DNA from: a virus
DNA: 54,395 nt
Virus genome (UHGV): UHGV-0107341
Strand: one strand, 5' to 3'
Made by a program: the position numbers and the translations under genes. Below, piece by piece: positions 37,997 to 42,671 of this stretch. The notes beneath the pieces were generated by a model. It was not told the origin of the DNA and made no database searches. It saw nothing but the letters and a program-made list of their open reading frames with translations. Positions within the stretch are counted from its first letter, which is position 1. Each line of letters starts with the position of its first letter.

Positions 37997-38506
37997 ATGG
38001 GGCACAATAACACTAAGGGAAACCGTAAATTTATTAAGGGCCGCTATACTGCCAACGCGGCCAAAGGCGAACGACTGGTATCTTCTGAATTCCAGCTCAC
38101 TTTTGCAGGCCATGAAGATATCAGCGTACTGGTTCGCACGTCGCAAATTCCTGAAATGACCCGCGAGGATGTGGAGGACTATGGTCCGAATGGTGTGAAG
38201 TTCAACCAGCACGGTCCAATTCGAAACTCTGGGGAAATCCAGGTCCAGTGCGTGGAGACTATCGAAGGCGATATTCTTCAGTTCATCAAGGATCGCATTG
38301 CGGCGAAGGACTATGTTGATATCACGATGGCTGCGACCCCTGAATCCAAATCTTCCGGGGTTAACGCTGTGACAAAAGCTGCTACAACAATTGAAATGTT
38401 GGACTGCAAAATCTACAGTGATGCAATCGACTTTAGTACCGAAGATGTGACTGCCGCTGTGCGCCCGTCACTTCGTATCGTCTACAACTGGATTGAGTGG
38501 GATTAA
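37997..38506 (+). CDS. tail tube protein (T4 gp19-like)
   Basis: 169 aa; overall pattern and C-terminal ...LRIVYNWIEWD resemble the gp19 C-terminus ...LALDYWE. Confidence 0.45.
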   Translation: MGHNNTKGNRKFIKGRYTANAAKGERLVSSEFQLTFAGHEDISVLVRTSQIPEMTREDVEDYGPNGVKFNQHGPIRNSGEIQVQCVETIEGDILQFIKDRIAAKDYVDITMAATPESKSSGVNAVTKAATTIEMLDCKIYSDAIDFSTEDVTAAVRPSLRIVYNWIEWD

Positions 38507-38525: not shown

Positions 38526-38550
38526 AAAGCTCCTTCGGGAGCTTTTTTAT
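38526..38550 (+). terminator. rho-independent terminator (aaagctccttcgggagcttttttatt)
   Basis: 8-bp GC stem, TTCG tetraloop, T6 run just after the tube gene. Confidence 0.8.
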
Positions 38551-38622
38551 TTGGAGAGGAAAGGGTGCATTGAGGATACCTGACACACGAAGAGTGGCGG
38601 GGATCTCTCCCCGCCAGGTCTC

Positions 38623-38778
38623 TTACCTTTCAGATTCGTAGGCTGTGAAGACAGTGACCTCCGTCTGGCCGGTTCGGATTCGTACCTCGCAGAGGTCTTT
38701 CCTCGTTACCAGTGCCGTCACAATGACGGTTAAACAGATGACGATCAGAGCGATTAACATCGCTTTTTGCTGCTTCAT
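38623..38778 (-). CDS. hok: Hok/Gef-family type I toxin (51 aa)
   Basis: Not in ORF track; encodes MKQQKAMLIALIVICLTVIVTALVTRKDLCEVRIRTGQTEVTVFTAYESER, matching the Hok family pattern (TM helix, RK.LCE.R...EV.AF.AYES); GGAG RBS. Confidence 0.7.
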   Translation of the reverse strand: MKQQKAMLIALIVICLTVIVTALVTRKDLCEVRIRTGQTEVTVFTAYESER

Positions 38779-38836
38779 AGCCTGCTTCTCCTTGACCTTT
38801 TGGTCGGTAAGAGGCTAATCTACGTATGCTAAGCAT
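38630..38836 (-). CDS. mok: mok-like overlapping reading frame
   Basis: 68-aa ORF overlapping hok in the +1 frame and starting upstream of it, as in hok/mok/sok loci. Confidence 0.4.
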   Translation of the reverse strand: MLSIRRLASYRPKGQGEAGYEAAKSDVNRSDRHLFNRHCDGTGNEERPLRGTNPNRPDGGHCLHSLRI

Positions 38837-38860
38837 AGATATGGCCTCAGATTAATGTTA
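38790..38860 (+). ncRNA. predicted Sok-like antisense RNA region (position approximate)
   Basis: Inference only: hok/mok loci carry a short antisense RNA complementary to the mok translation-initiation region. Confidence 0.2.
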
Positions 38861-38959
38861 AGCGTCTTGCAGGACGCGTGATGTTATCTGGGGCTTTCTT
38901 CTATCTGCTTTTCGGGTAATGCCTGAAGCAGATAGCCTCAAGCACCCGCAACGATTGTA

Positions 38960-39205
38960 TCAATGTCTGGCTTTTTTTCTATAGAAATCACCAGGAAGGG
39001 TGAATATCCACATCAGAAGAAATGTTGCAGCAAACATGATCCCTAATGGCCAGACCGCGCCAAAGAAAATCCATACTAAGATCTCCTCTGCTTGTTCTTT
39101 GCGGTCGATATCGACAAGCATTTTTCGGCTGATCATGTATACACAGAAGCCAATACAAACATATCCTGCAAAAGCGATCGCTAACTGTAAAAAATCAGAT
39201 TGCAT
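38960..39205 (-). CDS. small inner-membrane protein
   Basis: Track ORF 38960..39286 trimmed to internal ATG (MQSDFLQLAIAFAGYVCIGFCV...); two TM helices. Confidence 0.35.
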   Translation of the reverse strand: MQSDFLQLAIAFAGYVCIGFCVYMISRKMLVDIDRKEQAEEILVWIFFGAVWPLGIMFAATFLLMWIFTLPGDFYRKKARH

Positions 39206-39241
39206 CTCCGACCTCAAACTGAAAACGCCAGGTGACTCCAG

Positions 39242-39252
39242 ATTAGAGCAAT
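39242..39252 (-). promoter_or_regulatory. partial C1 operator-like half site (ATTGCTCTAAT)
   Basis: 11-nt match to the conserved left half of the operator consensus; right half diverges. Confidence 0.25.
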
Positions 39253-39255
39253 CTA

Positions 39256-40101
39256 TCACCCTCTGAATCCTGCCGGTATACCCCATTGTTCGTTATCTTT
39301 ATTTTTGGCTAAAACCGCATTAAGAGCTTCGTTTACCGTCATGCAATGCGGCAGATTATCGAAGTTTGATACACCGCCAATATCAGGAGAACGCTTGTTC
39401 TTCAGGTAAGCATATTTCCGCGCTGCCGCCTCTACTTTCTGCTTGAACTCATGTTTTTGAGCGCGTTTTTTGGATAACCGCAGATTGTCAGCCTTTGTTT
39501 TTGCCTCAGCGATCCATGAAGTCAATTTTTTGAGTCTGGTCGTTCCGGCACCGCCGGAAACTGATCTTTTTGTTTTTTTAACTTGTGACTTCTTATTCTT
39601 TATTGCCACGTCATCCTGACAGGGGGAGGGGGTATCATTTTGACATGGGGGTGTGGATAAAAAATTAAATAAAGCCAATGTCTTAGCGAGAACAGCTTTA
39701 ACCTTGGTTGCCGCTGAAGAGATCTTTAATTTGCTTTCAATCAGCGCATTTTTGGCTTGTTGTGCGAAGGCCAAAAAGGATGGTGTAAACCGGTACAGGT
39801 TAGCGCGACGTTCACGGTGATCGCCGATAACAATCTCTACAGACAGAATTCCTTTGTTTACAGCTTCACGGAATGCACGAACGACGGTTGATTGGCTATA
39901 ACCAGTTTCTGCCGCGATCAGGCGGTGAGGCTTGTGAATGAAGTATTCACTGGTTGTTGCCGCGAGATTTGCACATTGCGACAGGATATGCCCGGCGCTA
40001 CGGGATAGACCGGAGTGTGTTACAAAGCAGGCCAATTCATAGCCAGAAAAAGTAAAATCGCTCATCGTTATACAGCTCAGGAAAGTGACTTTAGCCAGCA
40101 T
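39256..40101 (-). CDS. repL: lytic replication protein RepL-like (HTH domain)
   Basis: 281 aa, directly downstream of kilA in the same operon as in P1 immI/repL; HTH-like GYSQSTVVRAFREAVNKGIL. Confidence 0.5.
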   Translation of the reverse strand: MLAKVTFLSCITMSDFTFSGYELACFVTHSGLSRSAGHILSQCANLAATTSEYFIHKPHRLIAAETGYSQSTVVRAFREAVNKGILSVEIVIGDHRERRANLYRFTPSFLAFAQQAKNALIESKLKISSAATKVKAVLAKTLALFNFLSTPPCQNDTPSPCQDDVAIKNKKSQVKKTKRSVSGGAGTTRLKKLTSWIAEAKTKADNLRLSKKRAQKHEFKQKVEAAARKYAYLKNKRSPDIGGVSNFDNLPHCMTVNEALNAVLAKNKDNEQWGIPAGFRG

Positions 40102-42379: not shown

Positions 42380-42560
42380 TTAACAACCTGCGCCCCGCTG
42401 CTAAACGGGTGGCAGGACGTGACGGGGTTAGCAGACTGGCACGAATGAAACCAGCAGGCCGAAGCCTCCCCATCACGCCCCACCATAATTCGGGCGTAAC
42501 GTGGTTTTACGGACACAAAAATACCGCAATATCGGATATCTGCGGTTGTCCGCATTCGTA
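42380..42560 (-). ncRNA. candidate c4-like antisense regulatory RNA region
   Basis: Non-coding stretch between the operator at 42672 and icd; repeated complementary motifs (ctgctaaac at ~42398 and ~42568, gttagcag at ~42427); boundaries not determined. Confidence 0.25.
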
Positions 42561-42671
42561 TTCAGGCTGCTAAACCCGGTCGCAGAATTTTCTACGACGG
42601 CGGAACTATAAGCCTGAACGATTAAAAGGTCAATATGATGCGAAAAGATAGCATTCGCGACTTAAAAATAC

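Follow-up and report, generated by a model that had tools for sequence, protein, structure and literature searches.

We found that the region between the tail-tube gene and repL of a 54,395-nucleotide viral genome, UHGV-0107341 (the whole stretch is hereafter called the window), very probably holds a complete hok/mok/sok type I toxin–antitoxin module of the hokD/hokW subgroup, with the regulatory mechanism of that family, carried as cargo by a P1-like phage-plasmid. Open reading frames (ORFs), homologies, RNA pairings and covariation were seen in the DNA; transcript ends, processing, toxicity and role are what we infer. A first-pass annotation made from the same letters had proposed a hok/mok/sok type I locus at 38600-38900. 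The proposal was borne out by a toxin ORF, a mok frame, a leader recognized by Rfam, a covarying tac/fbi pair and an antisense hairpin gene, all of which were found, but the functional locus is larger, extending from the hok promoter at ~38981 to the 3' fold-back element at 38563. As to its role, we tentatively suggest that the module may be an extra stabilizer of the low-copy plasmid prophage.

The hok gene and the overlapping mok frame

The toxin gene hok occupies 38623..38778 on the minus strand and encodes a 51-residue peptide (MKQQKAMLIALIVICLTVIVTALVTRKDLCEVRIRTGQTEVTVFTAYESER), with a Shine–Dalgarno (SD) sequence, AAGGAG (38793-38788), 7 nt before its ATG. This is the minus-strand Hok-family peptide with a GGAG-type ribosome-binding site that the first-pass annotation had described. 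The peptide matched Pfam HOK_GEF with E = 2.4e-22 and 78.7 bits (cut-off 22) through residues 6-47, covering the full 42-position model, and PHROG 251, 'MokW-like host killing', with E = 4.9e-32. It is identical to HokD of K-12 at 48 of 51 residues and to HokW of 933W/Sp5 at 47 of 51. The NCBIfam Hok hidden Markov models scored it below their curated cut-offs (49.5 versus 73 bits), so the name 'hokD' given to it by the Prokaryotic Genome Annotation Pipeline (PGAP) appears to rest on something other than these models. The window copy carries no disabling change; a single base separates it from the plasmid allele found most often, and this difference improves the 3' hairpin.

That a small chance ORF resembles Hok fortuitously has, in our judgement, a negligible probability. 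Its short length is the only feature in favor of this explanation, which is refuted by the Pfam and PHROG matches, the Rfam match of the leader (E = 2.8e-26), the 87-100% DNA identity to annotated hok loci and the RNA covariation described below.

For comparison, 47 hokD-like loci were collected from Escherichia, Shigella, Kluyvera, Citrobacter, Pantoea, Photorhabdus and others, and an alignment of 31 sequences (the window and 30 relatives) was built from those with complete flanks, the relBE-flanked type being left out. Within the toxin gene, the hexamer TACGAA at 38635-38640 (UACGAA in the RNA; the Tyr47 codon and the next one) is invariant in 31 of 31 sequences, synonymous codons never being used, and a UACG motif is thereby present at the Tyr47 codon of the window.

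The mok frame, 68 codons long, lies at 38630..38836 on the same strand, with its SD, GAGG, at 38848-38845 and its ATG at 38836, and matched PHROG 37205 (8.3e-21). It crosses the hok SD and start in a frame shifted by one base from that of hok, the two ATGs being 58 nt apart, and terminates 7 nt short of the hok stop. The overlapping +1-frame, mok-like ORF of 68 aa that had been noted earlier is thus real, but its out-of-frame arrangement cannot serve as a hallmark in this subgroup, as the first-pass annotation had it. Of the 31 aligned sequences, 28 keep the mok ATG, and the frame always enters the hok start; in 22 of the 31, including hokW, hokC and all Photorhabdus copies, the mok ATG lies 57 nt before that of hok and shares its frame. 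The +1 arrangement (58 nt) is a minority form, seen in the window and the copies closest to it as well as in two Kluyvera/Enterobacteriaceae loci. This variation fits the published view that the act of translating mok matters rather than its product (PMC9841398).

The predicted hok mRNA and its regulatory elements

A promoter scan predicted the hok/mok promoter at 38954..38981 on the minus strand, with TAGAAA, a 16-nt spacer and a TG-extended TACAAT (38959-38954). The -10 box ends 7 nt before the putative +1 (38947), and the same spacing from -10 to GG occurs in an R1-type locus (L055). Counted from this 5' end, GGGUGCUUGAGG, through the fold-back element, the hok/mok mRNA unit would be ~385 nt long (38563..38947, minus strand; both ends placed by homology), and transcription may continue to the hairpin at 38545-38526. 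Homology to hokW of 933W covers 38959..38563. The block shared with 933W starts with GGGTGCTTGAGG (38947) and ends with CCTCAATGCACCC (38563), that is, exactly with tac and fbi; its flanks are unrelated, and the hok promoter is outside it.

The leader (38773..38947) matched the Rfam family RF01794 'sok' over the full model (positions 1-157) with 112.2 bits (gathering score 59) and E = 2.8e-26. The match is on the hok-mRNA strand, not on the Sok strand, and the model consensus ends in the hok SD and AUG; it thus marks homology of the leader and not the antisense transcript. Sub-threshold Rfam matches to CRISPR-DR46, sbrA and ceN48, and a plus-strand 'sok' match of 20 bits, lay on the bplB terminator hairpin or on the hok leader and were dismissed as chance.

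The RNA from 38947 to 38520 folded at -167.2 kcal/mol (z = -9.1) into a closed form with its 5' end paired to its 3' end, and a second fold of the hok mRNA (z = -7.3) also had tac/fbi in its minimum-energy structure. The 5'-terminal tac element, GGGUGCUUGAGG (38936..38947, minus strand), is identical at 12 of 12 positions in eight hokD/hokW-type relatives compared by region. Its partner, the fold-back inhibitory element fbi, CCUCAAUGCACCC (38563..38575, minus strand), is complementary to it with one bulged U. Among the possible partners of tac, fbi gave the most stable duplex (-21.0 kcal/mol, 12 bp), followed by the adjacent downstream segment (-19.4 kcal/mol) and ucb (-10.7 kcal/mol).

The ucb or anti-SD box, AAAGCCCC (38890..38897, minus strand), is complementary to tac and is the partner of the mok SD in the fold of the full-length RNA, in which mRNA nt 96-104 are buried against nt 54-62 (duplex -10.5 kcal/mol). 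In the open form the mok SD region has dcb (GCCUC, 38811..38815, minus strand) as its downstream partner, with a duplex of -9.3 kcal/mol; the RNAalifold helix between SD and dcb (columns 156-161 with 193-197) is 98.1% paired across relatives. On the opposite strand dcb overlaps the spacer of the Sok promoter and ends one base before the Sok -10 box. The hok start is paired with downstream coding sequence in the full-length fold and in the consensus fold, the latter with two covarying pairs. Finally, the 3' stem-loop GGCGGGGAGAGAUCCCCGCC (38596..38615, minus strand; conserved helix, columns 396-403 with 415-427) presumably forms the protective end of the processed mRNA. When the 3' 40-odd nt were removed, the 5' region refolded locally and mRNA nt 118-134, just 3' of the mok start, became single-stranded, while the 38615-38596 hairpin stayed. 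The R1 model comprises dcb together with tac/fbi, ucb (anti-SD), a metastable 5' hairpin and a protective 3' stem-loop (PMC9841398), and each of these regulatory RNA elements has a predicted counterpart located in the window.

In the covariation analysis of tac/fbi, a bulged base in the Escherichia-type sequences put MAFFT out of register for the inner half of the pairing; the six outer pairs were counted on the alignment and the remainder by duplex folding, sequence by sequence. Of the 31 sequences, 29 retain the duplex; compensatory changes include GGGU.../...ACCC to GGGC.../...GCCC in Photorhabdus and Pantoea, and GAGG/CCUC to GAGA/UCUC or GAAG/CUUC. At columns 58:462, for example, U-A occurs 16 times, C-G 12 times and U-G twice, and the pair is broken once. 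RNAalifold independently recovered the outer tac/fbi pairs. The two exceptions, a K-12-type hokC whose 3' end is cut off by IS186 and a Photorhabdus copy with a replaced leader, are informative; the pairing is lost only where the locus is visibly disrupted. Taken jointly, three helices are 97.5% paired versus 39-53% with a slid partner, and their 30 double-change cells were reached in 0 of 500 shuffles. The separate 7-bp tac/ucb complementarity (U4 bulged, -10.7 kcal/mol) is kept in 97.7% of cells.

The predicted Sok antisense gene

The first-pass annotation had stated that the antisense Sok gene could not be delimited. We were able to place it, as a prediction, at ~38828..~38898-38904 on the plus strand (~71-77 nt). 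The annotated starts of sokW (933W) and sokC (K-12) are both 8 nt inside mok on the opposite strand, and the equivalent in the window is G38828. A Sok promoter at 38792..38821 (plus strand) was read by hand from these annotated starts and is likewise a prediction; it consists of a -35 box, TTGACC (38792-38797), that overlaps the hok SD on the other strand, an 18-nt spacer and a -10 box, TAATCT (38816-38821), at positions -12 to -7.

In the predicted transcript an unpaired 5' tail (38828-38842), with complementarity to codons 1-3 of mok and to the sequence just upstream of them, precedes a terminator hairpin (38843-38894; -33.3 kcal/mol, z = -5.9) with the tail CUUUCUUCU. The hairpin arm next to the 5' tail is complementary to the mok SD. 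The Sok strand folds into the more stable structure of the two in all 29 distinct relatives, with a mean advantage of 9.6 kcal/mol over the sense strand, partly because an invariant U-G pair of the antisense RNA would be a C-A mismatch in the mRNA. The Sok stem is 96.5% paired (38-57% in slid controls), with compensatory changes in 5 of its 13 pairs and 37 double-change cells, a number that 0 of 500 shuffles reached.

We also observed that no part of the locus has diverged further from its hokW/hokD-type relatives than the target of the Sok 5' tail, 38828-38842, where 9-12 of 15 positions are identical; the Sok hairpin is ~90% and the hok coding sequence ~93% identical to theirs. Such divergence of the tail would limit cross-silencing by Sok RNAs from the resident prophage copies that most E. 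coli genomes carry.

Proposed mechanism

We modelled the mechanism on plasmid R1 and on hokW-sokW, each of the elements involved having been located in the window. The weak constitutive promoter at 38981-38954 would give a stable mRNA of ~385-425 nt, in which tac (38947-38936) would pair with fbi (38575-38563) and lock the molecule in a closed form. In that form the mok ribosome-binding site would be buried against AAAGCCCC and the hok start in the coding region, which would allow neither translation nor Sok binding. Slow 3' trimming to the 38615-38596 hairpin would strip fbi, so that the 5' end could refold and expose the mok start, and translation of mok would then open the hok start. As long as the element is present, the short-lived Sok RNA (~38828-38900, plus strand, own promoter) would pair across the mok start and the duplex would be destroyed. 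Once Sok is no longer made, because the plasmid prophage is lost or transcription is blocked in general, the stored mRNA would yield Hok, a 51-aa inner-membrane peptide that would kill the cell.

The host element and the cargo site

The window is a P1-like phage-plasmid. Its kilA-repL-...-bplB-pmgG stretch shares 98-99% identity with P1, P7 and many P1-like records. The C4 antisense RNA of P1 immunity and its a1/b1 target (42405-42490 and 42559-42611, minus strand) and three tRNA genes (19875-19947, 21951-22023 and 22029-22101, minus strand), all above the Rfam gathering scores, fit a P1-type genome. A tblastn search of the window with P1 Phd and Doc queries gave no match, a result that is not a reliable guide to the presence of phd-doc.

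The hok locus lies, as the first-pass annotation had placed it, between the tail-tube gene (37997..38506, plus strand; PHROG 1120 'tail tube protein', 8.6e-83; BplB in annotated records), which converges on hok, and repL (39256..40101, minus strand; RepL in the annotation of near-identical records). BLAST breakpoints against NC_005856 and RCS47 define a cargo segment of 693 bp (38549..39241, minus strand) that holds hok/mok/sok and an ORF for a membrane protein. Homology to the P1 reference stops at 39242 and restarts at 38548, the 693 bp replacing 1826 bp with rlfA, rlfB and pmgF. The left junction falls inside the C1 operator Op55/Orlf (ATTGCTCTAATTATAAC), which follows repL in P1; positions 39242-39252 of the window keep only ATTGCTCTAAT before the sequence diverges. 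RCS47 has the same left junction and a third, different filling between the same two borders. The right junction is the hairpin after bplB, AAAGCTCC-TTCG-GGAGCTTT (38526..38545, no strand assigned), which is common to hok and the converging bplB. A terminator scan rated it a good terminator for bplB on the plus strand, with no U-tail on the hok strand; it is conserved in P1 and RCS47, and the sequence past 38548 differs.

The site corresponds to variable region 5, one of the eight hypervariable regions of P1-like phage-plasmids (PMC9603915), and in pSvP1 rlfA, rlfB and pmgF are replaced by two ORFs, an antibacterial toxin among them (PMC6906374). We noted that pmgF, a putative P1 morphogenetic gene, is absent from the window, as are rlfA and rlfB (38549-39241 versus 3398-3694 of L004); pmgF is evidently dispensable for many P1-like elements with this cargo. 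The co-travelling ORF (38960..39205, minus strand; 81 aa, or 108 aa from an upstream ATG at 39286) has two hydrophobic stretches, is a hypothetical protein in PGAP (WP_001369095.1) and matched PHROG 3772 of unknown function (7.9e-54), with no match in Pfam or NCBIfam. It is not linked to hokW in 933W and belongs to the cargo segment, not to the toxin–antitoxin module.

The position of the cassette bears on its possible role. The window hok lies directly downstream of the C1-controlled kilA-repL lytic operon, on the strand that carries it, with only a weak terminator-like site (39003-38988) between them. This arrangement speaks for an alternative reading in which the same module would serve the lytic cycle, as hokW-sokW does in the Stx2 prophage Sp5: Sok would fall upon induction, inner-membrane Hok would build up and speed lysis and release, and stabilizing would not be its job. 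Indeed, hokW-sokW is the closest tested relative of the window locus (87% at the DNA level, 47/51 aa), and its deletion halves the release of Sp5 after mitomycin C (PMC8621323). However, P1 has its own holin and endolysin and the reference P1 lacks the cassette, which is also disrupted in many P1-like plasmids; the Sp5 signal is RecA-dependent, and such coupling was not seen in the window. A lytic role is, moreover, compatible with a stabilizing one, and as an alternative to stabilization we consider it rather unlikely.

A bolder version of this idea, which we regard as quite improbable, is that the cassette is wired to the lysis–lysogeny switch of P1-like phage-plasmids rather than being a free-standing addiction module. 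It is suggested by the same strand and the immediate downstream position relative to the C1-repressed kilA-repL, by a junction that cuts Op55 and by the lack of a strong terminator between them. If true, Sok could be out-titrated, or the tac/fbi lock bypassed, by read-through transcripts made on induction, Hok would be a timed exit or lysis accessory, and recurrent insertion of IS186 in the 3' hairpin would be a natural off-switch.

Spread and broken copies of the locus

The locus is widespread. A 501-bp region is 99-100% identical in hundreds of plasmids, with at least 80% coverage in 414 of 669 matching records, and most of the 391-bp locus is carried by 449 plasmids. As the P1-type bplB was found in 680 plasmids of PLSDB, the plasmids of this type that carry most of the hok locus amount to roughly 60-65%; the locus is absent from the reference P1 and P7. 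Of 5426 complete E. coli genomes, 4739 contain relatives at 87-92% identity, mostly chromosomal and at a median of two places per genome. In blastn 'distant' mode, a search of plasmids with the locus did not reach R1-type hok/sok, whose DNA is too diverged, and tblastn with the peptide was used instead.

The description of the locus as unannotated holds for the ORF track of the first-pass annotation and no further, since the identical gene is named hokD, 'type I toxin-antitoxin system toxin HokD', by RefSeq/PGAP in hundreds of plasmid records, and a Punavirus P1 record annotates it as MokW. The locus is already known: the identical gene is annotated, the insertion site is published and the family is well studied.

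Many copies are broken. In the Cronobacter plasmid pCrono684-2 (L057, 3851-5188), IS186 sits in the 3' hairpin (GGGGAGAGATCCCC), duplicates the equivalent of 38611-38600 and parts fbi from the remaining locus by ~1.3 kb. About 18 of 60 evenly sampled plasmid rows have the locus split likewise, IS186 itself being verified in pCrono684-2 only. K-12 hokC (L053) carries IS186 at exactly the homologous position, and pSvP1 has the same insertion with a 10-bp repeat, GGATCTCTCC (PMC6906374). Some P1-like plasmids keep a leader-only remnant (L058, 2961-3138, and RCS47, L005, 3263-3529, equivalent to window 38990-38813 and 39075-38810, respectively) that retains the hok promoter, the leader and the Sok-coding part, without hok and with a 198-aa gene next to it on the opposite strand. 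The breakpoint at 38813 deletes the Sok -35 box.

These broken copies raise the question of whether the cassette is a neutral passenger, that is, intact, expressed and self-silenced, with no measurable killing or phage benefit, and hitch-hiking in a recombination hotspot. IS186 lies between the hok stop and fbi in about one third of the carriers sampled, only the leader is left in others, the site is one of eight hypervariable regions (PMC9603915), and the 99-100% identity among copies could reflect recent spread rather than conservation. In addition, chromosomal hokA, hokB and hokC under their native regulation reportedly failed at post-segregational killing (cited in 10.1101/2025.08.07.668861). 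On the other hand, all pairings are intact in the window and compensatory changes are found across genera, arguing for purifying selection on the RNA system of the family, though not necessarily on this copy. We judge a purely neutral passenger to be unlikely.

The role of the module

Stabilization of the plasmid prophage is, in our opinion, the most economical reading, because Hok is enriched on large plasmids with partition systems; a preprint survey reports this enrichment on large partition-bearing plasmids and also in prophages (10.1101/2025.08.07.668861). The module would then be an extra stabilizer, a suggestion that we make by analogy and that falls short of being probable; beside stabilizing, a contribution to lysis on induction is possible. 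Post-segregational killing, the function given to the locus by the first-pass annotation, is likewise a role that we infer for it. The toxicity of the peptide is suggested by its relatives: HokW arrests growth on induction and is counteracted by sokW RNA, with contributions of RNase III and Hfq (PMC8621323), which makes hokW-sokW a validated type I system, and HokD was toxic in the survey (10.1101/2025.08.07.668861). From these results we consider the module of the window to be probably active and to work like that of R1.

Several points weigh against the module as reconstructed or against this role. The hairpin beyond fbi has no U-tract on the hok strand, which leaves the true 3' end of the mRNA uncertain, and the minimum-energy fold of the truncated mRNA shows a local 5' hairpin instead of the tac/ucb stem. 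No covariation of tac/ucb was detected in the 31-sequence alignment because its columns are almost invariant, a result that neither supports nor contradicts the pairing. The consensus promoter scan found the hok promoter and not the Sok promoter, which has an 18-nt spacer and was left uncalled because its -10 box matches only 3 of 6 consensus positions. In many sister plasmids IS186 has split the locus or only a remnant of the leader is left, indicating that the element does not need it. The chromosomal loci hokA, hokB and hokC, in spite of intact elements, reportedly show no post-segregational killing, in work cited by the survey (10.1101/2025.08.07.668861), and the nearest tested relative, hokW-sokW, acts in lysis, not in maintenance (PMC8621323).

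The hok/sok system of R1 excludes phage T4, and prophages and phage-plasmids often carry defence cargo in such hotspots. Abortive infection is a further conceivable role of the module: a virulent phage would stop host transcription, Sok would decay and Hok would kill the cell early, protecting clonal carriers. Phage defence is one of three documented roles of toxin–antitoxin systems, and a Hok role in it is reported in the survey (10.1101/2025.08.07.668861). In the same survey, however, hok was not enriched beside defence systems (10.1101/2025.08.07.668861), and nothing in the window ties the locus to a sensor. We regard abortive infection as a very improbable role and retain stabilization as the preferred one.

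The discovery value of the locus is small, since it belongs to one of the best-studied RNA-regulated toxin systems, its gene is routinely annotated and its site is published. It has value for annotation: both a toxin gene of 51 aa and a predicted antisense RNA gene of ~70 nt, overlooked by an ORF track with a length filter, can now be placed by coordinates, along with each regulatory element. Intact, IS186-split and leader-only loci, moreover, form a natural series for testing stabilization versus lysis by a hokD/hokW-type module.

Comparison with known systems

The first-pass annotation had suggested a comparison with hok/sok loci that included their RNA elements; it gave 87% identity to hokW/mokW/sokW of 933W and allowed the R1 elements to be placed. 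The 933W/Sp5 locus is phage-borne like that of the window, the 87% DNA identity extends from tac to fbi, Hok is identical at 47 of 51 residues, and sokW has the same start position and the same long hairpin. In contrast to the window, where mok is one base out of frame (58 nt), mokW is in frame with hokW (57 nt); the promoter regions are unrelated; and the target of the Sok 5' tail is identical at only 10 of 15 positions, so that cross-silencing may be limited. The host elements also differ, 933W being an integrated lambdoid prophage of E. coli O157:H7 and the window a plasmid prophage.

The toxin of K-12 hokD (relF, in the Qin cryptic prophage) is identical to that of the window at 48 of 51 residues and supplies the PGAP name of the window protein. 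Unlike the window gene, hokD lies directly behind relBE. Loci of the K-12 hokD type (H246-H249) match the window only from mRNA position 156 and are without tac, ucb, mok and sok, whereas the window has the full set; in the relBE-flanked loci L014, L029 and L041, relE-type sequence replaces the leader. The hokC (gef)/mokC/sokC locus of K-12 shares ~75% DNA identity with the window and has sokC at the same relative position, but IS186 in its 3' hairpin cuts hokC from fbi, while the window copy is uninterrupted.

The founding member of the family, hok/mok/sok (parB) of plasmid R1, resembles the window locus in the tac/fbi closure, the ucb and dcb boxes, a mok that is not in the hok frame, a Sok placed opposite the start of mok and a 5' end that starts with GG.GCUUGAGGC; the window leader matches the Rfam family. 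The two differ in that the R1-type toxin is ~42% identical (H184) and the DNA is too diverged for blastn, the Sok hairpin of the window is longer, and post-segregational killing has been shown for R1 only.

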